Program-made: the position numbers and the translations under genes
Notes under the pieces: model-generated
Databases searched by the model: none
What the model saw: only the letters and a program-made list of their open reading frames with translations
Told to the model about the DNA's origin: nothing
Origin: a virus
Virus record (IMG/VR): IMGVR_UViG_3300007539_000009
Coordinates: 64,001 to 128,000 of that record
Strand: one strand, 5' to 3'
DNA: 64,000 nucleotides
In this document: piece by piece, positions 1 to 13,700 of the stretch
Layout: each line of letters starts with the position of its first letter
How positions within the stretch are numbered: position 1 is the first letter of the stretch

Positions 1-3000
1 ACAGACAGACCTTTGTCGATCAGACCCTTACGTGCACCAGGCGTTGTGCTGAGGTAGGCGCCAAGGTCGTGGCCTTCTGCGTAGGACTTGCCGACGATGA
101 TCGGTACGACCTGGTTTTTGTGGTCACGGGTGCCTACGGGGCTAAGCACCATCTGCTGGATCTGGCCTTTCTTGCCCAGCGCGCCAGACAGCGGACCAGC
201 CTCGACGAACCGGTTGTTGATTGCAGCGTCTAGCAACAAGCTGAGCTCCGCCACGGCCTCGTTAGCCGCTACGTCGTACCCGACGGTCTTGCTGCGGCGC
301 TTAGCCTTCCTAATCACCGCATCCCGCTTCTTCGTGTCGATTTCCAGGTCGCGGAGACTGACGCTGAAGCCGACTTCGGTGACGTAGTGGTTGCCGAGGT
401 TCTTGACCTCTGTGATTACACGCGCTGCTTCGCCGGACGAGAGCTCGCGCCCCGCACGCTCCAGATCGGCGTCCATGAGCTTACGTGTCGTTGAGCGGTA
501 CGCAGGCCGCACAGCTTGCGGGAAAGTCTGCGCGTAGATCCACTGGCCGATGCAGTGCACCTGCCCGCCCACGCGTGCCGCCTGGTTCGCCTTGACCTTC
601 TTGTCGCGGTAGAGCTGGAACAGGCTTTCCCAGTTACTCACTGACGGCGTGTTGCCTCTGACCTTTGGGGTGGTCATCAGGTACACACCCAGCGCAGTCT
701 CCTTGGTCGGCGAATGTACGAGACTGTGGTCCTGCGGGCTGAACAGGTTTTTGCTAGGCAGCAGCCGGTCAAACGCCTCTTTGCGCGCCTCTTCCGACAC
801 CGGCACATGGATACCCGCCGTGTCGCCGTCGAAGTCCATGTTGAAGCCACCCACAATCAGCGGGTTGACCTCAACGGCCTTGCCTTGGATCAGTCGCGGC
901 TTAAACGCTTGGATCGAGAACTTGTGCAGCGACGGGGCGCGGTTCATCAGCACAGGCCGATGCTCCATCTCAATCTCGAGCGCCTTGACGGCCAGCGGAT
1001 CGTTCTCTTCGATCGCTTTGCGTGCTTCGATAGGTGTCTTGCCCATCGACTGCAGCCGCTTGACCACAAACGGCTTGTACACCCGAGCTGCCATCTCTTG
1101 AGGCACACCGACCTCATCGAGATGCATCTTCGGGTTCGGAATTACGGTTGACCGCCCCGTAAGATCCTGCGCCCTACCGGACACTTTCGATTGGAAGAAC
1201 CCATACTTCGGAGCTGTCTTCCCTTTGATCTGTGAGACGAAACCTTGAAAGTTGCGTGCGCGAGTAAGTGGGTCACTCGTTCCGACCACACCTCCCACGG
1301 CTCCCGTGAGTGCTTGGTAGAGCGGACGTAGGTTCTCCTCATCAACCCCGAGACGGCGCAGCTCGCGAATCTGGTTGTTGACGAGCATGACTTCCCGGTA
1401 TCCGTGCACTGCGTCAGCAACACTCAGCGTCCCATCAGGCTGCACCGCAATCTGACGGAACTTGGGCGGAATCACGGGGAGCTGTTTGTTTACATAGGCG
1501 TCGGCAGGCTTGATGCCTGACACTTTCAACGCCTTCAAGTACCGCAGCCGCTTGTGCGCCTTATCCAGCCCAGTGCCGCGCTTACCAGCAGCGGCTTTCT
1601 CGGTGATCTGAATCTCTTTCTCTACGTCAACGTTATCCAGGATGCGGCGGACACCGTCAGCCCCAGTGATGTTGCCCTCGGCTTCTTCAGTGATCTGACC
1701 GTCGGGCGTCACGAACAGCTGACGATCGATGATCTGCTGCAGCTGCTTCTTAGTCTTGAAGGCGCCGACTGCTGCGACAGCATCGATCATCAACGGGTGG
1801 ACAACCGGAGTTTCGAGGGTGATGTGGTTCCAGCGGTTTCCACCAATGCCGCCTGTCAGGCCAGGATCAAACAGCCCGCCCTTCTCAGGGTTCAGGTTCT
1901 TCGCGTTGACTACCAGCGGCTTCTTCAGCTCGCCGCTCGACATCGACAGGATCTCGTTGTCAGTCATAGGTGTAGCTTTGATAGTGCTACCTGACTGCTC
2001 GAGATTGATGCCAGCTGCGAGCAACATGGCAATGAACTTCTCTTCTACAAACGGCGTCTGCGGAGGAGGGGTCGGCTGCCCGGTTTGTACCGCGCGCCAG
2101 TACTCGTCGTTGCGCTGACTCTTGAGCCCGAACGCGTCGTGCAAGAACGCGGTGGCATCGCCGGACAGCAACGAGAACGTGTCTAGCGCGCCAATACGCT
2201 GCGCACTGGCGTCACCGCCTTTGGTCGGCTGTTGGTCAACGGAGTAACGCTCACCAGTAGCGGCGCGTGCAGAGATCTTCTTCGATACCTGGTGCTTCAG
2301 CTTGAACCAGGTCATGTTCCCGACGAGCACGTCATCGAGCTGGTCGCCCGTGGTGGGATCAACGATCGTCTCCTCGTCGCTGATTCCAGCGTCTGCGAGC
2401 TCCTTCTTGAGCTTCTGCAGTGTGCCGGCAGTGCCCTTCTCGTTGAAGTTGTCTGCGTAGTAGACCTTGCCCGTCTTCTCTGCGAGCTTGCCAGCTGCTG
2501 CTTCAAACAGCTGACCAGTATTGACACGCCCCGGCACGCCAGCCGGGTTCATTAGCAGGTCAATGGTCTGGTCATCCTGACCTTTGGGCATTTCGTTGTC
2601 CGGAAGGATGCAGTTTCCCGACCAATGACATTTACCGTTTCGTCGGACATATACCAAACCACCAGGGACTGTCACGCAGAACACCTCACCGCTGTACTCA
2701 GTGGTGTATCGATCTTTGTTCTGGAACCCCTGCTCAACGCGATCACGGTACAGAGATAAGCACCACTGATCGCGATACTCGTTGCGACCAGCAACAAATC
2801 GAATGACCCCGCTACCTCCTGTGAGAACCCAGGCGCGGTGCAAGTCTACTGCAAGCTGTTCTGAGGTTATCGAAATACACATAGCTTGGTGCTTCGGCCG
2901 TTTCGCGCCGTCGCCCAAGTTGAACGCGTCTACAAGTCGTGTGAGCGCTGCCTGAGACGTATGAAACCAATGCTCAGGTATGTACTTCTCCCACGCATTA

Positions 3001-6000
3001 CCCAGGCTGTGCAGATACTCGTACACAGCTTTGTTGGCGAACCGGAAATAGCCGTGCCCTCGAGATTTATCGGTGTAGTGGTACTTCCAGGTGATCCCTA
3101 ACTTGGTGAGCAAGGCCCCGATACGTTTACAGTTGTCGGGATTAGCTACCTGGCTTTGGGCGATATGAATGCGATACTGACGCACTTGTGCGACGCCGTA
3201 CCGACCACCGGCTAAGCAGCCTTCAGCCAGATACCATCCCAGCAGCTCGGCGAAGTCTTCAGTATTGAACTTACGAAGACAGTCACGCCCTTTAGCTCTT
3301 GCTGCTTTTGGTAGTACAAACACTGCGGCAGTGTGTTCAGGAAGCGAAGATTTAGCTGCGTACTGCAGGTACCGACGTCCCTTGACTTCATCAGCTCGCT
3401 GGAACTTGTATTCAGCGGTCTGACCGCGATAGTGCTCGATGCGGCTCCACACCCGATGGTCTGGCGTTACCAGATAGTCGAGGTGGTCGTTGGCCACTCC
3501 GTACATCGGCCCAGAGTAATCGAACCGATGAAGTGCTTCTGGTGTGACGAACTCAAGACGGCCGCCTATTTGCGCGCTAATCTTATCTGATAGCGTCAGC
3601 TCTGAAAACGGCTTCCAGCCATTGGCAGTGAGAATATCTGTCTGATCGTCAAAGCAGGTCACGATGCCCTTAGATCCGTGGCGAGATGACAGCTTGTCAC
3701 CGACCTGCATCTGCTCTTTGGTGTGGATGTAGACCTTGACAAATCCACGTGACTCCACAACGTCAACAACAGTGCCCTCATATGCACTGTCCCAGACTTC
3801 TGAGATGTCTACGAACTTCAAGCCCGCACTGCGGTGCAGCTTGCTGTAGTCGTACTCCGGGTGGTACTCCGCTTCCTGGATAGCGGGGATCAGCACAGTA
3901 CCCGGAGGCACTGTTGCACCCTTTTTGACTATGCCGGACTCGGTGTAGAGGTCAGCAGGACAGTTGGCGACTTCAGTAGGGAAGGCAGCCAGGTATTTCT
4001 TACGCCCGACATGTACCTTCTTCTTGATCTGTACGCGGAACTCATACTTGTGCGTAGAGGTCAGCTTCTTGGCGCACGACTCAGAAATGACGATACCGTC
4101 CTCGAAGTTGTACCCCTTCCAGGCGGTGTACGCGACTTTGAGGTTCTTCCCCATAGCCAGCGAACCGTCTTTGGTGAAGTTGTTTCGCGCTACGTCCTGG
4201 CCAGCTTTGACACGGTCTCCTACTTTGACGATCGGCTCGTCGTGCAAGTAGGTGTTTGAGTTCAGCGGATAGTTATGCCTAAGCGGCACTTTGTAGACGC
4301 GACCACGACTAGGTCGGATCTTGATGTAGTCGTCAGTGACCTCAGTCACCACACCGCCACGAGCCTCGCCAGTGCGGATGTCGACAGCCTTAGGCGTTAG
4401 CGCTGACCCAAACAGCTCCTCGTAGCCACCTCCTGCAAGCCGGTGCTGCACTAGAGGCTTGTCGGGGTCTACAAGCCCTACCGACTGTTCAACGTGCTTG
4501 TCCCCCATCAACACACGGTTCGCGTGGTTGTTGTTGAGGAATGGCACCATTGCCGTGGTGCTCGAGAAGAACGCGTCAGGCGACACGAAGATGTAGTCAA
4601 CCTCGCTAGCCTTAACGTCAGCGATCTGGTTGCGCCGACGTGCGCGGACCGACTCGGGGTCTTTCGGCTTAGGTTTGCCATCAAAGCCCTTCTTGGGGTC
4701 CTCCGGCATGTTGCTGTACTGGTCAGGGAACGCAACGGTCGTACCGTCGAGGTCCTGAACAGACACCTCGGTGCGCTTACCTGTCGCTGCAACGTAGACA
4801 GGCACAAAGAGCGTCTGCCCTTTCTTGATAGCACCAAGCGAGAGGTGGTTGGTCACACCGACCTTATCGCCCTCAGGTGTATGCAGCGGGTCGAGCAGGC
4901 TGAAGTGCGACGGGTGTACGGTGCGCACGTCGTCAGTAATGGCGTGCGAGCTCGAGATGCCGCCGTCTCCGATGGTTGTGACCAAGGCATTGACCGAGGC
5001 CATGTCCAGCGGGTTGTTCTGGTCGCTGTAGCGCGTGAACTCCGACGTGGTGAAGAACTGGGTGACCGGCTCAGAGAACGTCATCGGCGGGATGACAGAG
5101 TCGATCGTCGGGTTCCGCATCAGCTCGAACTTGAGCTTGCGCTGAATGGCAGGAGCAGCGTTCTGGATCTTCTCAGGTACGAAGTCCTCGACTGAGTGGA
5201 TCGATTTGAACGCCAGAGACTCTTTGTCGTCTGCCTGCGCTTCCTTGCGCGAAACAGCCAGCGCTTTCTTGACGCCTTCGTAGAACGCCGAGCGATCAAT
5301 CTTGCTGACCGGCCGGCCTACCGTCAGCTTGTTGACAGCAGGGTCCAGCGGCTTTGATTCCATGAACTCCCTGACGAGCCTCATCTGCTCGTCGAGTTCG
5401 TTGCTCTGCGCGTAGGGCCGCAGCTTCGACAACATACGCTCTACGTCTCTGCGCAGATCCGCAGCCTCGAAGTTAGTCGGGTAGAGCTCGTTCGTCAGCA
5501 ACTGCCGGATCTCAGCATCGCGCATCCCCATGCAGCGCAGCACAGAGTAGATCGGCACATGGAAGCCGGAGCCGATACGCAGCCGGATTAGACCCGTATC
5601 CCGGTTAAGCAGGATTTTGAGCGTTCTCGACGCTGTGGTGTTGAGGAACACCTCAACCTGGTTGTCGTTAGCATCTGACGTGTAGATACCAGGACGCAGA
5701 CGAAACTGGCTGACGACTTGGACTTCCTTGCCCTTTACCAGGTAGCTGCCGTTGGCCGTAAGGTGCGGTATTAGCAAGATCGGATGCCGGTTTTTCTCGT
5801 CCAGCACCTTGCCACTCTCGTTCTTGATCTTGACGTCAGCTACCAGGACAGCATTGAGCGTGCCCTCTTTGAGCTTCACGTCTCGCTGTCGCTTGACGTC
5901 TAGCAGTACGTCAGCACCCACTTTGCGCCAACGGAAGTTGGACGCAGTAAGCGTGCTCTTGTCCCCGATCACCGGGAACTGAGCTTTGACGATGTCCTCG

Positions 6001-6050
6001 CTTTTAGCCAGGAGCTCCGTGAAGCGCTCTAAGTGCGCGGACTCAATCAT
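1..6050 (-). CDS. Multi-subunit-type RNA polymerase, beta and beta-prime fused in one ORF (3' end outside window); contains an intein
   Basis: Hand translation from ATG at 6050 (MIESAHLERF...); the segments I translated share one frame from 6050 to base 3. Beta motifs: DQNNPL, VHPSHFSLLDPLHTPEG, GYNFEDGIVISE, GDKLSSRHGSKGIV, LLMNPAGVPGRVNTGQLFE. Beta-prime motifs: GGLFD, SGRAQDLTGRSTVIP, VLMNRAPSLHKFSIQAF, NMDFDGD (822-842), GARKGLID (18-38). Missing from ORF track because it has no stop in the window. Confidence 0.95.
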   Translation of the reverse strand, partial: MIESAHLERFTELLAKSEDIVKAQFPVIGDKSTLTASNFRWRKVGADVLLDVKRQRDVKLKEGTLNAVLVADVKIKNESGKVLDEKNRHPILLIPHLTANGSYLVKGKEVQVVSQFRLRPGIYTSDANDNQVEVFLNTTASRTLKILLNRDTGLIRLRIGSGFHVPIYSVLRCMGMRDAEIRQLLTNELYPTNFEAADLRRDVERMLSKLRPYAQSNELDEQMRLVREFMESKPLDPAVNKLTVGRPVSKIDRSAFYEGVKKALAVSRKEAQADDKESLAFKSIHSVEDFVPEKIQNAAPAIQRKLKFELMRNPTIDSVIPPMTFSEPVTQFFTTSEFTRYSDQNNPLDMASVNALVTTIGDGGISSSHAITDDVRTVHPSHFSLLDPLHTPEGDKVGVTNHLSLGAIKKGQTLFVPVYVAATGKRTEVSVQDLDGTTVAFPDQYSNMPEDPKKGFDGKPKPKDPESVRARRRNQIADVKASEVDYIFVSPDAFFSSTTAMVPFLNNNHANRVLMGDKHVEQSVGLVDPDKPLVQHRLAGGGYEELFGSALTPKAVDIRTGEARGGVVTEVTDDYIKIRPSRGRVYKVPLRHNYPLNSNTYLHDEPIVKVGDRVKAGQDVARNNFTKDGSLAMGKNLKVAYTAWKGYNFEDGIVISESCAKKLTSTHKYEFRVQIKKKVHVGRKKYLAAFPTEVANCPADLYTESGIVKKGATVPPGTVLIPAIQEAEYHPEYDYSKLHRSAGLKFVDISEVWDSAYEGTVVDVVESRGFVKVYIHTKEQMQVGDKLSSRHGSKGIVTCFDDQTDILTANGWKPFSELTLSDKISAQIGGRLEFVTPEALHRFDYSGPMYGVANDHLDYLVTPDHRVWSRIEHYRGQTAEYKFQRADEVKGRRYLQYAAKSSLPEHTAAVFVLPKAARAKGRDCLRKFNTEDFAELLGWYLAEGCLAGGRYGVAQVRQYRIHIAQSQVANPDNCKRIGALLTKLGITWKYHYTDKSRGHGYFRFANKAVYEYLHSLGNAWEKYIPEHWFHTSQAALTRLVDAFNLGDGAKRPKHQAMCISITSEQLAVDLHRAWVLTGGSGVIRFVAGRNEYRDQWCLSLYRDRVEQGFQNKDRYTTEYSGEVFCVTVPGGLVYVRRNGKCHWSGNCILPDNEMPKGQDDQTIDLLMNPAGVPGRVNTGQLFEAAAGKLAEKTGKVYYADNFNEKGTAGTLQKLKKELADAGISDEETIVDPTTGDQLDDVLVGNMTWFKLKHQVSKKISARAATGERYSVDQQPTKGGDASAQRIGALDTFSLLSGDATAFLHDAFGLKSQRNDEYWRAVQTGQPTPPPQTPFVEEKFIAMLLAAGINLEQSGSTIKATPMTDNEILSMSSGELKKPLVVNAKNLNPEKGGLFDPGLTGGIGGNRWNHITLETPVVHPLMIDAVAAVGAFKTKKQLQQIIDRQLFVTPDGQITEEAEGNITGADGVRRILDNVDVEKEIQITEKAAAGKRGTGLDKAHKRLRYLKALKVSGIKPADAYVNKQLPVIPPKFRQIAVQPDGTLSVADAVHGYREVMLVNNQIRELRRLGVDEENLRPLYQALTGAVGGVVGTSDPLTRARNFQGFVSQIKGKTAPKYGFFQSKVSGRAQDLTGRSTVIPNPKMHLDEVGVPQEMAARVYKPFVVKRLQSMGKTPIEARKAIEENDPLAVKALEIEMEHRPVLMNRAPSLHKFSIQAFKPRLIQGKAVEVNPLIVGGFNMDFDGDTAGIHVPVSEEARKEAFDRLLPSKNLFSPQDHSLVHSPTKETALGVYLMTTPKVRGNTPSVSNWESLFQLYRDKKVKANQAARVGGQVHCIGQWIYAQTFPQAVRPAYRSTTRKLMDADLERAGRELSSGEAARVITEVKNLGNHYVTEVGFSVSLRDLEIDTKKRDAVIRKAKRRSKTVGYDVAANEAVAELSLLLDAAINNRFVEAGPLSGALGKKGQIQQMVLSPVGTRDHKNQVVPIIVGKSYAEGHDLGAYLSTTPGARKGLIDKGLS
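2613..3656 (-). mobile_element. Intein (348 aa) with LAGLIDADG homing endonuclease, in RNAP beta moiety
   Basis: In-frame insertion between ...GSKGIVT and CILPDNEMP. Starts CFDDQTDILT (block A), has LLGWYLAEG and LVDAFNLGDG dodecapeptide motifs, YSGEVFCVTV (block F), ends HWSGN followed by extein Cys. Confidence 0.93.
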
Positions 6051-6474
6051 CAGCGTCGTCCGACAACCCAGCGAAAAGCTCGTTCAGCTCTTCGTCATCT
6101 TCGCTGTTCAGGACGCGCCGTGCTTCTGCCTGGTCATCTCCTTCGCGCAGCTCTTGCTGGGACTTGTAGAGCGGAAGGTTATCGCCCTTCTCGAAGTAGA
6201 TGACGCGGATGAAGTAGTCACCGGCAGCTGAGGTCTTCTCAGTAGCGCTGATGACTTCGTAGCGCGCCGTATCGTTGTACAGCACCTGCCATCGACGGCA
6301 GTCAATGTCCTTGTTCATGTCGAGCAGCTCGATACGTCGAGCACGCGACACGTCCATCTCCTCAGAGTCAATACGCAGGAGCGCAGCAGTGAGCTTGGGC
6401 ATAGCTCCTTGCTGCTTCAGTCGTTGTGCAACGCCTTGCTGCACTCGGTCTGTGAGGGTCCTGCGTCGGGTCAT
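6043..6474 (-). CDS. Hypothetical protein, 143 aa, acidic C-terminus
   Basis: ORF overlaps portal stop (ATGA) and RNAP start; no recognisable domain. Confidence 0.8.
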   Translation of the reverse strand: MTRRRTLTDRVQQGVAQRLKQQGAMPKLTAALLRIDSEEMDVSRARRIELLDMNKDIDCRRWQVLYNDTARYEVISATEKTSAAGDYFIRVIYFEKGDNLPLYKSQQELREGDDQAEARRVLNSEDDEELNELFAGLSDDADD

Positions 6475-8432
6475 ACCGGACTGTTCTCTCTGCGCGGCGG
6501 CTTCTGCTCAGGCAGCGGCTTGATGTCGTTCACCTGATCTTGGATCAGCCTCTGACGCCGCCTGATGGCAGCAGCTAGCGCCGGGTTGGTCTGCTGTAGG
6601 ACGGCAATCTCATGCTCGATCATGTTCGGCGGGATCGTTTTGAGCATGTTGTCCGACATAGTGTCGAGCATCTGAGGATCAGCCTGCCAAGACGTGTCCC
6701 CAGGCTGCTGACCTTGTTGCGGAGCGCCAGCCGCAGCGGACTGATCAGGAGCACCACTAGGTGCTCCATTAGGCGTCCCGCCTTGGTAGGGGTCTCCACC
6801 TCCAGTTTGGGCGTTCGGATCCCCTTTTGGTGCGTACTCAGCGATGTAGCCTTGCTCCCGAGCTTCGCGGATATCCGCCTCGAGTGCCTTCTGTTGGGCC
6901 ACTTGAGCCTTTGCAGCGTACTCAGCCTGGATCACGCTGGCCTGTCCTTGGACCTTGGCAGCCTGCAGCTGCTGACGCTCCATGACTGCCAAGCGCTCGA
7001 TCTCTTCCTTCTGCTTGCGCGTGTTCTCGCGCTCGAAGTCGAAGCCGAGCTCTTCGATCGTGGTCTGATCGGACAGCGTGTTCGTTTGCCGCAGCGACAG
7101 CGCGATCTGCTTCTGCTGCGCGTCGTCCGCCATCTTGAAGTCACGGTGACGCAGGTGAATCGGCGGCATGCCGCACCAGCGCGTCAAGCGCGGGATGACG
7201 AAGTCCTTGAGGAAGTTATCGAGCTGCTCAATCTTGTTCAGGAAGATGTTCTCCAGAACACGCAGCGAGATTGACGAGCCAGTCCAATTGAGTCCGCCGT
7301 ACACAAACTCCTGGGGCGTGTCCAGACCACCAGTGATCTGCTCCCGCACCATCGTCATGTCGTTGTGGACATTGAGCGCCTGCGCGTCACCACGGATGTT
7401 CAGCATCTGCGCAGGGAACGGCATGGTGTAGATACCGTTCTGATCACGACGCCACTTCTGGATGATGTTCATCATCTTGTCTGACCAGTCCCCGAGGTCC
7501 GCAGCCATGTGCGGGCTGGGGCCGCCAGCGGGTGCTGAGGGCGTGAGGACAGTCAGCGGCAAAACGTGATCAAGCGCAATCGCTTCTTGTGCCCGGCGGT
7601 ACGTCTGGAAGAGCCAAGCGTCTTTGAAGACCGGGAGAAGCGGCGGGAGCCCGAAAGCGTCGTCCTCCATAGAGACGCTCGGGTTCTTGAAGTGGTAGAT
7701 GTTGTCGGGATCTAGCTTGACGTTCTTCTTCTCCTTCGTCGCCTTGAGGATCGACATCGGAGTTTCAAGGATTAGATCGCGGTTGGAGTTGGCGTCCTGA
7801 ACACGCTTACGCAGCCACTGAGGGATGCGGTAGATGTACGTCGAGCTGTCGCTGAACGGGTTGTACCGGACGTCGATGTACTTCGGGTTCCAGCGAATGA
7901 TCTTGGTTCGCTTCCGGTTCTTGACCGGCCGATCGTAGACCTCGAAGTCTTTGTTCTGCGTCTTGCACTCAGGGCAGTGACCCTCGAATCGGTTGTCGCG
8001 GTACTTCCAGTCCTTGTGCGTCCGCGCCATGAACTTGTGCCCGCAGTGCTTACAAATCAGGTGCCGGTCGAACGGTCGGTAGATGGACGCAAAGGCGTTG
8101 CCGTAAACCTCGTTGTCCAGCAGCAGCTTGTACTCCGCCTCGCGCAGCTTGATGTTGCGCTCGAGCAGCTCACGCCACGCTCTAGTTGAGTACGAGCTCT
8201 CAGACTCGTAGATCAGCGGTGTGATGACATACGAGCACTTCTTGTTGATCGTCGGAGCGATCTCGGAGTGCGTCGTGTAGAGGTACAAGCACCACCGAAA
8301 CATCTCCTTGACGGAGTTCGGGATGTAGCTGGTGCTCGGGTCGAAGAACGGGTGAGCGTAGTTGCCTAGCCCGCGTCCTCTGCTGCCAGAGCCTGACCGG
8401 TTGCCAAGTGAGTTACTGGATTCGAGGCTCAT
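6471..8432 (-). CDS. Probable portal protein with a CxxC...CxxC insertion and Q/A/P-rich C-terminal tail
   Basis: 653 aa; portal-like segments (YGNAFASIY, IIRWNPKYI, IYHFKNPS...FGLPPLLPVF, QEFVYGG) and position among head genes. Confidence 0.7.
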   Translation of the reverse strand: MSLESSNSLGNRSGSGSRGRGLGNYAHPFFDPSTSYIPNSVKEMFRWCLYLYTTHSEIAPTINKKCSYVITPLIYESESSYSTRAWRELLERNIKLREAEYKLLLDNEVYGNAFASIYRPFDRHLICKHCGHKFMARTHKDWKYRDNRFEGHCPECKTQNKDFEVYDRPVKNRKRTKIIRWNPKYIDVRYNPFSDSSTYIYRIPQWLRKRVQDANSNRDLILETPMSILKATKEKKNVKLDPDNIYHFKNPSVSMEDDAFGLPPLLPVFKDAWLFQTYRRAQEAIALDHVLPLTVLTPSAPAGGPSPHMAADLGDWSDKMMNIIQKWRRDQNGIYTMPFPAQMLNIRGDAQALNVHNDMTMVREQITGGLDTPQEFVYGGLNWTGSSISLRVLENIFLNKIEQLDNFLKDFVIPRLTRWCGMPPIHLRHRDFKMADDAQQKQIALSLRQTNTLSDQTTIEELGFDFERENTRKQKEEIERLAVMERQQLQAAKVQGQASVIQAEYAAKAQVAQQKALEADIREAREQGYIAEYAPKGDPNAQTGGGDPYQGGTPNGAPSGAPDQSAAAGAPQQGQQPGDTSWQADPQMLDTMSDNMLKTIPPNMIEHEIAVLQQTNPALAAAIRRRQRLIQDQVNDIKPLPEQKPPRRENSPV

Positions 8433-10709: not shown

Positions 10710-13700
10710 TTAGGAGTATGCGATGAACGAACCGGTGTCGCCCCAATCGTTCGCGCCCAGCGTAGCACCTGCGATGATGCTGCCGTTTGCGAACTGAAGT
10801 GCGCAAACAACTGGTGTCGCTGTGGTGAACGAAGCATCGGGGTACGTGTTGTTCACGCCCGGCTCGGGAACATTCATCGTGATCTGGATCTCGAACGGAG
10901 ACACCAGCTTAGTTACTGCAATGTTCTCGAACTTGACCCCGTAGAGGTCAGAGGCCACCGCAGTCACGGCAGGGGCCTCAGTGGTGGCAACTGCTTCGCG
11001 CAACCGCACGGTCAGCGTCACGAAACCACCTTCAGTGCCCGGGCCCACTTGCGACTGCAGCGAGCGCGCTACATCGAGCTGTGTGGCGCCTTGGGTCGGA
11101 TCGACATTCACCTTAGGACCACGAGCGTGTTGCCCGTAGCGAACAGTGGTGCCGATAGAGGTCAGTCCTCGCGCATTCCCCGCACCAGTTGCGTCCACAG
11201 CAGCCAAGTCCCACTCGCCAGCACCGTCAGGGTGCGTAGCAGGCCGGTTGAGCCATACCCGCGCTCGGAGGTTGCTGTAGGGGATTGATGCCGGAACACG
11301 CGCGATGATCTCGTCTGTGCTCTGCGTGACAATTTCTACCACCTCAATCCGATCCTCGGACAGTGCGGCGCTCAAACCAGGACCAGGCGGCGTCTCTTTG
11401 ATGTCAGAGCTGACCGAGTCATCCTCTTCACCGACGATCTCTAAGTACACACCAGGGTCGCTAGCCGGATCGCCCAGACCGCCAGGATCGACGTTGGCGC
11501 TACCCAGGTTGGTGCCCTGTATGCGTAGCAGTGCTGTCTTGTCCGTGTTCGGAACCGGCGCAACAACCGTAGCTGCGTCAGGATCAGCGAACTCGTTATA
11601 CAGCGTCAAGCCTGTGATCGTCGGATCGCCAGCCGGCTGCGAAAGGATGAACCCAAGGTTTCCTGCACGCAGCGTGTTGCCGCCAAGGTAGTTGATCGCA
11701 ACACCGAAGCTGCGGCCCGCTGTAGAGGCTGCGATGTCTACCGAGTACACCAGCTGCGTGCTGCTTGACGAGGTCAAGGTAGCACTCGAGAACGCCGTGT
11801 CGTCGCCGCTATCAAACAGCGAGTACGAGTAGTTCAGCGCACTGGCTCCTGACGGTACTGAGCCGGGAACAAGCCCGGTTCCGTAGATAGTCAGCGTTGC
11901 GCCAGTTGTGCCTTCGTACGCAGGTGTCAGCACAGCGCTGCGAACACGCGGAGCAGCGGGCTGGACGATGCGGGCTGACGTACCAGCCGTCACAGTCTGC
12001 GACAGCGTCGAGTCTGTGATCTTGGTGGTCACCAGCTTGCCTGCTTTGTTATCTGCCCAACGAACAAAGCCGCTGATACTTGACGTCGTTGCCGCTGTGA
12101 TCGTTGTTGACGCAGCCACGGTAGTACCAGTTGAGTCAACGAAGTCAACTGTCAAGTTACTGCCTGTGCCGTCTTCAGGTGCAAACCGACCAGCGATCGT
12201 GAACTCGCTGTACAACCCTTCAGCAGGTGCACCGCTGAAAGACGTCGGGTTAACCGAGCTGGTGAATGGGCCACCGCCAAATGTGGCGCCGAGCGTACCG
12301 GGGTTACTACCGCCGCCGCCAACACCTAAGGACTGGACAAACTCCAAAGCTGACAACGCCACAGTGGACGGGCCGGTACCTCCTGGCGCAGGCTGCTTGG
12401 TGATCACTAGGTCTGCCGTATCGCCGAGAGCGGCAGTGCCGTTAAGCTGAGCGGAGATTGTCCACACGTTGCCTACAGGGTTAGGCAGCACTACGAAGGA
12501 ACTGAAGTACCCGCCGCTTGTGGTGATCGTCGGAGGGCCGCCATCAAAGTTACTAGCGGCACCAATCAGGTCGATCTCAATATTGAACACCGCTCCTGGG
12601 GCAGCAGCATTCGACAGATCTAGCTCACCAGGTAAGTGGTCAGCAGCAGGCAGCACTTGAATGCTGTTGAACGTCGGATCCTGATCGAACGTGATCTGAC
12701 CGGCAGACGACACGTTAGAGTACTGGCCATCCGGGTTCCGAATGACGATGTCGAACGCACCTGTAGGAGTTACCGTTGCGAGCGTATCATCGGGGTCGAT
12801 CACATTGAGCGGAATGACCCAATCCCCTGCGCCGCCTGCGGGGATAGCCGGCGTAGCCCCGGCCACGCTGATGTACGTCGGATCCAGTCGTGTTGTTGCA
12901 GTAGTGATCGCACCTGACGTCACCACCAAGCCCGGAGCGTAGAACTCAACCGAAGCTCCGTCGACGATAGCTTCGACATTCAGCGTGATCTGGTTGTCCG
13001 CTGAGCTATCGTTCTCGATCACACCAGCTGACGCTGTGTTGATGATCGCAGGCTCTGCAGGCGTAGTGCCCGCAGCTACTTGACCAAAGTTGATTGTGAG
13101 CTCTTGGCCGGCTTGCCCTTGATCGAAGGCGAGTTTGTTTCGATACGTGACAACGATGTTCTCGCCTTCTGTCGCTGAAAGCTCTTGAAGCTCTAGGGCA
13201 AAGACCTTAGTAGCACCGGAACCATTAGCAGAGAAATCAGAGTCAGTGAGCGTTGTGCCGTTGTTAGCAAAGCCCGACACGAGATCAGCCTCAAACAACC
13301 CTGTCTGACCGGACTCCCAGTCGCTATGGGAAAGGCTCGCTAGGACTGTGACGATGTTGCCGGCTTGGGTGATCGGGTCGGTACCATCACTCGGATCGAT
13401 CAGGATGGCTCCGTTTGAACTTAGGGGCCGTGCGCTGATCTCGCTGACTAGAGCAATATCGAACGCACCGAACTCAACGTTGCTGGTCTGGTCGAAGACA
13501 CGAATGCGAAGGTCTGTTCCGCCAGTAAGAGCAGCGGTGAAGAAGTCATTGTTGATCTTCCACGTGCCCCAGAACCCGTTGTTCTCGAACCCGATAGAGT
13601 TGGGCCCTATAGCCGGGTTGAACTGAGTTGTGCCGATAGAGCCGTCAGGTAACGGCGCACCGCTAGGCACTGTGTTCGCCATCGCTGTATCCGGCATGTT

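Follow-up and report, generated by a model that had tools for sequence, protein, structure and literature searches.

The window analysed here is a 64,000-nucleotide stretch of viral DNA, positions 64,001-128,000 of the 183,184-bp IMG/VR virus record IMGVR_UViG_3300007539_000009, which comes from an uncultured phage and is 95% complete by CheckV. Judged from its sequence, this phage encodes a complete bacterial-type RNA polymerase (RNAP) catalytic core as one polypeptide, with the C-terminus of beta joined to the N-terminus of beta-prime. The gene occupies a single minus-strand frame (window 3..6050 in the list of open reading frames, ORFs) whose ATG start codon lies at 6050 and which reaches the window edge without a stop codon; retrieved whole from the virus record, it is an uninterrupted frame of 2388 amino acids (aa) at genome 62,884-70,050 (L002:8884-16050, minus strand), extending 1116 bases past the window start. 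The part inside the window (1..6050, minus strand) encodes residues 1-2016 of 2388, as delimited by the ORF list, the translation and Pfam matches to Rpb2 and Rpb1. An initial annotation had proposed a genuine phage-encoded, single-chain, shortened beta/beta-prime RNAP carrying an intein, and the frame, the Pfam domains and the alignments all bear this out.

The order of the segments, all on the minus strand, is as follows. Beta upstream of the intein (residues 1-798; 3657..6050), identified by Pfam Rpb2_3 and Rpb2_6 and by alignment to the beta subunits of Salmonella and Staphylococcus aureus, ends in the catalytic motif GDKLSSRHGSKGIVT; it is followed by a LAGLIDADG homing-endonuclease intein (residues 799-1146; 2613..3656) and by the remainder of beta (residues 1147-1352; 1995..2612), which aligns with bacterial beta and has the C-terminus ...AAGINLEQ. 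The beta/beta-prime junction INLEQS-GS-TIKATP (residues 1348-1362; 1965..2009) is in frame and conserved, and is modelled as a beta-hairpin. The portion of beta-prime within the window (residues 1353-2016; 3..1994) has the clamp-helix region and no zinc-binding domain, and was recognized by Pfam, PDB and Foldseek matches. In Pfam searches, Rpb2_6 (E 2.9e-58) and Rpb2_3 (E 7e-12) match on the beta side of the junction, and Rpb1_1, Rpb1_2 and Rpb1_3 on the beta-prime side. The translation reads ...PFVEEKFIAMLLAAGINLEQSGSTIKATPMTDNEILSMSSGELKKP... without interruption, so that beta does run via SGST into beta-prime without a stop, as had been claimed; the position given for the junction, about 1930-2050, also agrees, with PFVEEKF starting at window 2054 and SGST at 1994 on the minus strand. 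Without the 348-aa intein the chain is 2040 aa long, with approximately 1004 aa of beta (about 1000 had been estimated) and approximately 1036 aa of beta-prime. A tblastn search with the RNAP protein found no second copy in the whole genome, which has one RNAP gene, and PF00940 (T7-type RNAP) matched nothing in the genome, the control genomes being equally blank for this model.

The intein-free sequence and 14 family members were aligned with the beta and beta-prime subunits of Salmonella (using E. coli numbering) and S. aureus. The fused core is 26.3% identical to that of Salmonella and 26.7% to that of S. aureus, which are 56.5% identical to each other. The lysine motif of beta, GDK...RHGxKG, is kept as GDKLSSRHGSKGIVT and is broken by the intein. 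The catalytic magnesium-binding motif of beta-prime, NMDFDGD (NADFDGD-type), is located at residues 1737-1743 (822..842, minus strand), with D-F-D-G-D invariant in the alignment with bacterial beta-prime. The bridge helix and trigger loop are present (GARKGLIDK...GYLSRLLV and TQVTLRAFHTGG), as are the cysteines of the second zinc site, which are nearly invariant across the family alignment. PDB sequence matches for the beta-prime part are to bacterial beta-prime, with E-values of 1e-101 to 1e-80.

The same alignment shows which modules have been lost. Relative to E. coli, beta 229-345, 938-1049 and 1125-1178 and beta-prime 942-1130 are absent, all of which we take to be lineage-specific inserts of E. 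coli; the flap is kept except for the insert at 938-1049. Relative to S. aureus, further losses are beta 279-371, beta-prime 579-617 and a number of short segments, and the fused chain is about 350 residues shorter than both large S. aureus subunits combined. The N-terminal zinc-binding domain is gone, with E. coli beta-prime 68-99, containing the four-Cys site at 70-88, deleted and no Cys in this region in any of the 14 family members aligned. Also missing are the last 39 residues of beta-prime (E. coli 1369-1407), a C-terminal tail that presumably contributes to omega binding. In the model, helices 400-420 and 425-443 form a helical hairpin that aligns with the beta-prime clamp helices, a predicted docking site for sigma. 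At the other end of the protein, the N-terminus MIESAHLERFTELLAKSEDIVKAQFPV (window 5970-6050) is a family-specific helix-like segment, F-x-E/S-L-L...FP[VI]xG, that stands in place of the first ~20 residues of bacterial beta.

At the junction the translation reads ...PFVEEKFIAMLLAAGINLEQ-SGST-IKATPMTDNEILSMSSGELKKP... (also ...GINLEQ-SGST-IKATPMTD...), and the consensus from the family alignment is G[AV]G[IV]N-x(3,4)-G-x(5)-P-[ML]-T-D. This region aligns with the bacterial beta C-terminus (...GINIE...) and the beta-prime N-terminal sequence (...ASPD.IR.WS.GEV...). Structure prediction with AlphaFold (AF2) for residues 1147-2000, using a 62-sequence alignment, gave a high-confidence model, with a predicted local distance difference test score (pLDDT) of 90.4 and a predicted template modelling score (pTM) of 0.82, and Foldseek matched it to bacterial beta-prime chains with a template modelling score of ~0.63 over the query. 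In this model INLEQS and TIKATP are adjacent strands (model 202-207 and 210-215) in blocks of pLDDT >=90, joined by a turn of G-S, suggesting that beta and beta-prime are joined covalently by a tight hairpin turn of two residues and not by a flexible tether. Our reading of the model is that fusion would have converted an intermolecular beta/beta-prime strand pair into a hairpin.

The fusion is a trait of a family and not an artefact. A scan of IMG/VR returned 80 related loci, whose ORFs were read for architecture: about 27 have a single ORF over the whole query, of 2020-2150 aa without inteins, and about 15 have an ORF of 1460-1500 aa with beta and the first half of beta-prime, the remainder (620-690 aa) lying 2-4.5 kb off. 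One further locus, L041, has its RNAP in three pieces, with beta and beta-prime as separate genes. In a large protein database, 433 proteins of 1313-4179 aa matched at E <= 1e-10, and all 120 of these that were listed carry both Rpb2 and Rpb1 domains, on source contigs of up to 196 kb. More than 100 independent metagenomic proteins have identical junction placement. The initial annotation is incomplete as to uniqueness, since hundreds of metagenomic proteins of the family have the fusion.

Cultured relatives are also available. The same fused beta/beta-prime junction is present in Salmonella phage Arash (gp206 and gp216) and in Vibrio phages D69, D148 and D181, and this Arash/D69 group shares the gene order portal, small ORF, RNAP. 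Their proteins are 27-30% identical to the window protein and are all split in beta-prime, near E. coli 555-570, into a chain of ~1525 aa and one of ~606 aa encoded 0.6-4.8 kb apart; the fully fused form was found in no cultured phage of the phage genome collection searched. In the Arash record (L170, OQ632216.1), gp206 (2094-6671) is annotated as 'subunit beta' and is actually beta plus the first half of beta-prime, while gp216 (11442-13262), also given the product 'subunit beta', actually holds the rest of beta-prime, and the gap between them is taken up by eight reverse-strand genes, gp207c-gp214c. The Arash paper likewise annotates gp206 as 'subunit beta' with no mention of a fusion (PMC10585845). 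Two other entries of the phage collection are bacterial DNA filed as phage: 'Staphylococcus phage SA 1306 Kay' (L088, OR844998.1; UNVERIFIED_ORG) carries a bacterial-type rpoB-rpoC pair, and AFYI01000006.1 (L087) is a Salmonella whole-genome contig, with the rpoB start annotated 38 codons too far upstream.

For phylogenetic placement, bacterial rpoB-rpoC loci were gathered by a scan of one genome per species. The best 80 of these are 39-45% identical to the fused protein over the most conserved 161 residues, with no phylum preferred and none closer. A FastTree analysis of 54 taxa and 1927 columns (LG+gamma; an unrooted tree under a simple model) recovered three clades, each with Shimodaira-Hasegawa (SH)-like support of 1.0: the fused family, the Bacteria (19 sequences from five phyla) and three mReC-like loci. 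Mean tree distances are 3.0 between the family and Bacteria, 3.6 between the family and the mReC-like loci and 0.9 within Bacteria, values for which the tree model does not separate early divergence from fast evolution. The beta-prime-split type, which includes D69, nests as a subclade within the fused family (support 0.992), and because the junction is common to both subclades the fusion is ancestral to the family; the placement of the basal fused sequence L035 is unsupported (0.19). The reverse-strand cassette in the beta-prime gap of Arash fits a secondary split. Nesting within a host lineage, which had been named as grounds for refutation, did not occur, the family lying outside all five bacterial phyla. 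Recent transfer from a host was considered and is ruled out by the 26-27% identity to bacteria together with the separate clade.

Partner subunits were sought in the whole genome. The alpha and omega models PF01000, PF01193, PF03118 and PF01192 have no match in the 95%-complete genome, whereas the control genomes do match, and PF01000 (alpha N-terminal) has none in five related records, two of them complete. A sigma-70-family ORF of 312 aa is present at genome 33,399-34,337 (L085:1288-2226), about 30 kb before the window start, in an oppositely oriented part of the genome and with a 331-bp gap upstream. It matches Sigma70_r2 at 30-31 bits, above cut-off, and Sigma70_r4 at 25.2 bits in the genome search (above cut-off) and 22.5 in the protein scan (just under), and is approximately 25% identical to RpoD/RpoS-type sigma factors. 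Sigma genes are also present in two related near-complete genomes of the fused type, G001 (189 kb, with terminal repeats) and G002. The initial statement that neither alpha nor sigma is recognisable is therefore true of the window, and for alpha and omega it extends to the genome, but a sigma-70-family gene lies outside the window. Since the genome encodes this protein, the RNAP is probably sigma-dependent rather than factor-independent, while the proposed assembly-independence is a reasonable but provisional reading of the fusion and the lack of alpha and omega genes, recruitment of host alpha being possible.

The genomic context links the RNAP to the virion genes. Identities of neighbouring genes were taken from Pfam (large terminase), from annotated Arash genes and from the ESM Atlas (portal). 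The portal protein gene lies directly upstream of the RNAP gene and is co-directional with it (6471..8432, minus strand); its product is 27% identical (E 1.5e-60) to the annotated Arash portal gp204, its feature and structure neighbours in the ESM Atlas are portal clusters, and it has no PDB sequence match. In 37 related loci, too, the RNAP gene has a portal gene upstream. Between the two is a 143-aa ORF (6043..6474, minus strand, from the ORF list) that overlaps its neighbours by 4 and 8 bases, is conserved in the two closest loci only and matches nothing in Pfam or PHROG. The large terminase gene is five genes downstream of the RNAP (GpA_ATPase, E 3.4e-11). By a crude gene call, genome 56,095-81,023 (window -7906 to 17023) is co-directional with no gap of >=50 bp; this 25-kb run, in which overlaps of 4-8 bases between neighbours are frequent, includes the genes for the large terminase, RNAP and portal and for a 1788-aa protein. 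None of the 20 proteins around the RNAP (window 6043-51080 and L002:3866-8887) matched a PHROG at E <= 0.01, suggesting that the lineage is essentially absent from that sequenced-phage family library, and at E <= 1e-5 no more than five of the proteins encoded here match the 49-kb structural region of Arash, which indicates that the two phages are very distant. In sucrose-gradient-purified Arash particles, gp206 was the protein with the largest number of spectra (3516), and gp216 (1210 spectra) and the sigma factor gp10 (467 spectra) were also found (PMC10585845).

The explanation that we favour as a whole, and regard as probable, is that of a single-chain, sigma-directed catalytic core that is made late, packaged and delivered with the DNA. 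The intein would splice out, and the 2040-aa chain would then fold into an active core without an alpha-dimer platform, the covalent beta/beta-prime link taking the place of alpha-assisted assembly. The phage sigma could dock on the retained clamp helices and flap tip and guide the core to phage promoters. The enzyme may be produced late with the head proteins, enter the capsid and reach the next host cell along with the DNA, where it would begin the new infection; this step is proposed because the gene sits in a gap-free portal-terminase block and because the Arash ortholog tops the virion spectra. Given gene position and the Arash spectra, a late-expressed, capsid-packaged RNAP is the most likely reading, its chances being slightly better than even. 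Some way short of an even chance, though still possible, is a minimal two-component machine in which a self-assembling chain of ~225 kDa, devoid of alpha, omega and the beta-prime zinc-binding domain, and sigma, injected from the capsid, transcribe the whole genome without the host polymerase, the fusion allowing the core to refold after ejection without an assembly platform.

Several observations weigh against the favoured explanation. Activity as a single chain is, for the fused family members, a prediction from sequence and model. A small-subunit gene could reside in the missing 5% of the genome or be too divergent for the Pfam models, and recruitment of a host alpha or omega is possible; the fused cellular enzymes of Helicobacter are thought still to use alpha and omega. 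Pfam Sigma70_r2 is unmatched in three related records, one of which is a complete genome of the split type. No promoter word common to 58 upstream regions emerged from a k-mer search, and a search for a consensus promoter upstream of the sigma gene scored no higher than shuffled sequence. The case for packaging is carried over from a relative at 27-30% identity, and the Arash proteome comprises 116 proteins, including ribonucleotide reductases, with the authors themselves cautioning about carry-over (PMC10585845).

A possible but doubtful alternative is that the single-chain RNAP works but is not packaged, serving middle and late genes, and being expressed with the late genes or from an internal promoter, while host RNAP serves the early genes. 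The confinement of the virion evidence to the distant Arash, with its permissive 116-protein proteome, leaves room for this, as does the position of the sigma gene elsewhere in the genome, which, given its opposite orientation and 331-bp upstream gap, could be an early gene read by host RNAP. The portal-RNAP adjacency with overlapping stop and start codons is, however, kept in the 37 related loci, there is no gap of >=50 bp across the surrounding 25 kb, and the Arash ortholog outscored even the major capsid protein in spectra. It is unlikely that the fused chain assembles with the host alpha dimer and omega in the manner supposed for fused cellular enzymes. The natural rpoB-rpoC fusions of Helicobacteraceae and Wolbachia (PMC7483510) and the retention of most core modules of beta and beta-prime would suit such an arrangement; against this, the beta-prime C-terminal tail (E. 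coli 1369-1407) is missing, host-specific alpha contacts are unlikely to be preserved at 26% identity in a family that presumably has many hosts, and the RNAPs of jumbo phages show that cores can work without alpha and omega (PMC7598289).

Less likely again is a precursor that undergoes cleavage at the junction or close to it, for instance by a head-maturation protease, to yield separate beta and beta-prime. L041, with its separate beta and beta-prime genes, and the tolerance of the Arash-type subclade for a split in beta-prime do imply that covalent continuity is not essential everywhere in the family; but the junction is short and conserved and is modelled at pLDDT >=90 as a buried-looking two-residue turn rather than an exposed linker, and the retention of beta and beta-prime in one frame in more than 100 proteins would be needless if the chains were later separated. 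An assembly chimera or a pseudogene in decay, as readings of the long ORF, have negligible probability and were ruled out: nothing was found in favour, the same architecture and junction recur on many independent contigs that come from different projects, no catalytic motif is damaged and the AF2 models are of high confidence.

The intein (residues 799-1146) breaks the universally conserved beta motif, GDKLSSRHGSKGIVT/.../CILPDNEMP. It begins with Cys (CFDDQTDILTANGW) and ends ...HWSGN, running from Cys1 to Asn348 with a further Cys as the next residue, and its splice boundaries (...KGIVT/CFDDQTDILT ... HWSGN/CILPDNEMP) are those of a class-1 intein. Intein-free homologs read through the motif, the segment being absent at exactly the residue 799/1146 boundaries. 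The Pfam match to LAGLIDADG_3 is weak (E 0.031) and the intein has no PDB match by sequence, but its AF2 model (pLDDT 85.6, pTM 0.85) matches TliVMA (E 2.5e-16), PhoVMA, PI-PfuI and PI-SceI, with the middle domain matching I-DmoI. Because the intein lies inside the beta catalytic motif, splicing must presumably come before RNAP activity.

Eighteen other family members have inserts in the same motif that are 24-32% identical to this intein, at three adjacent insertion points: after GDKL (the commonest), after KGV(L) (P0082) and after KGIVT (the window gene and P0080). Comparison of the window motif (3611-3668) with homologs P0004, P0080 and P0082 places all three points inside one 15-residue catalytic motif, which suggests that homing endonucleases have been repeatedly re-targeted within a few codons. 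Across the family (P0003-P0122) there are at least six intein positions, at intein-free residues ~394 (ETPEG motif), 637, 788-800, 963, 1396 (just after N[AM]DFDGD) and 1796 (trigger loop), and some proteins have two inteins and reach 3550 aa. In two loci a second large ORF ~6 kb downstream of the RNAP (L011:22055-25051 and L024:22028-25621) contains a homolog of the 799-1146 intein, indicating that this intein family has spread to other phage genes. The RNAP genes of the family are hot spots for inteins and so provide a ready-made set of them in the catalytic motifs of RNAP.

Comparison with other phage RNAPs brings out what is distinctive in this one. Kinship with the mReC RNAPs, which the initial annotation had raised, was not upheld. 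Weinheimer and Aylward (2020) required matches to beta and to beta-prime on the same contig and reported 97 such contigs, from tailed phages of ~100-300 kb whose RNAPs, like the YerA41-like ones and the enzyme described here, match standard beta/beta-prime models and fall outside the cellular lineages (PMC7481178). In all mReC entries examined, however, there are two separate proteins (beta 900-1560 aa, beta-prime 900-1390 aa), and the mReC-like loci L054, L056 and L058 form a different clade (support 1.0) that is as far from the fused family as bacteria are; L055 matches the window protein weakly, at 153 bits. Membership in mReC was rejected on the two-protein layout and the separate clade. 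The mReC criterion calls for separate beta and beta-prime proteins, each of >=800 aa, that cluster in the mReC RNAP clade, and it is probably because two proteins are required that the mReC set misses the fused genes; the paper mentions fusion only for crAss-like phages (PMC7481178). A cultured example of the unfused, mReC-like arrangement is the YerA41-like Yersinia phage vB_Yru_GN1 (L169, 3155-9268), with adjacent but separate genes for beta (1090 aa) and beta-prime (925 aa).

In Helicobacteraceae and Wolbachia the fused enzymes are of ordinary bacterial type with the usual domains, and the cells also possess alpha and omega. At 2040 aa the phage protein is much shorter than these, is without the beta-prime zinc-binding domain and is 26% identical to bacterial cores, as measured on Salmonella and S. 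aureus. The cellular fusions resemble it in that the beta C-terminus is joined to the beta-prime N-terminus in one frame (PMC7483510, citing Lane and Darst 2010 and Zakharova et al. 1999). The jumbo phages phiKZ and AR9 likewise have relatives of multisubunit RNAP without alpha or omega, one version of which is in the virion, but their enzymes, which are very divergent, are divided among four or five polypeptides and lack a recognisable sigma (PMC7598289), whereas the window enzyme is one chain with strong Pfam matches, from a genome with a sigma gene and a single RNAP set. In crAss-like gp66, YonO and the tape-measure-fused RNAP of P23-45 the catalytic core is also in one chain, and the crAss-like and P23-45 RNAPs are virion proteins (PMC7481178; PMC10770324; bioRxiv 2020.03.07.982082); these enzymes are too divergent for standard beta/beta-prime models (PMC7481178), unlike the window protein with its full bacterial module set (Rpb2_6 E 2.9e-58). 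Arash encodes a sigma factor (gp10), as the window phage does, and its RNAP pieces are abundant in virion mass spectrometry (PMC10585845).

Reviews of jumbo phages describe only split, sigma-less phiKZ-type enzymes and YonO-like proteins (PMC7598289). In the literature searched we found no publication on phage RNAPs of bacterial type with beta and beta-prime fused, which is not proof of absence, and this large, bacterial-like family is apparently undescribed. Each of its features is known separately, as rpoB-rpoC fusion, phage RNAP without alpha or omega, virion RNAP and RNAP inteins, and the combination of fusion, lack of alpha and omega, virion RNAP and intein was not found reported in the same literature. 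The family also shows that the published mReC clade does not cover all bacterial-like phage RNAPs. To our knowledge every cellular multisubunit RNAP needs a platform of alpha (or of the Rpb3/Rpb11 type) to join its large subunits, and we know of no well-studied exceptions other than the phiKZ and AR9 enzymes, which are fragmented and divergent and lack a recognisable sigma. The family described here can be aligned to bacterial RNAP module by module, yet is a single chain without the zinc-binding domain, and it seems to pair with an ordinary-looking sigma factor. It would thus offer a tractable system for studying what core assembly needs, how sigma docks without the zinc-binding domain, and how a 225-kDa enzyme could be packaged and ejected.

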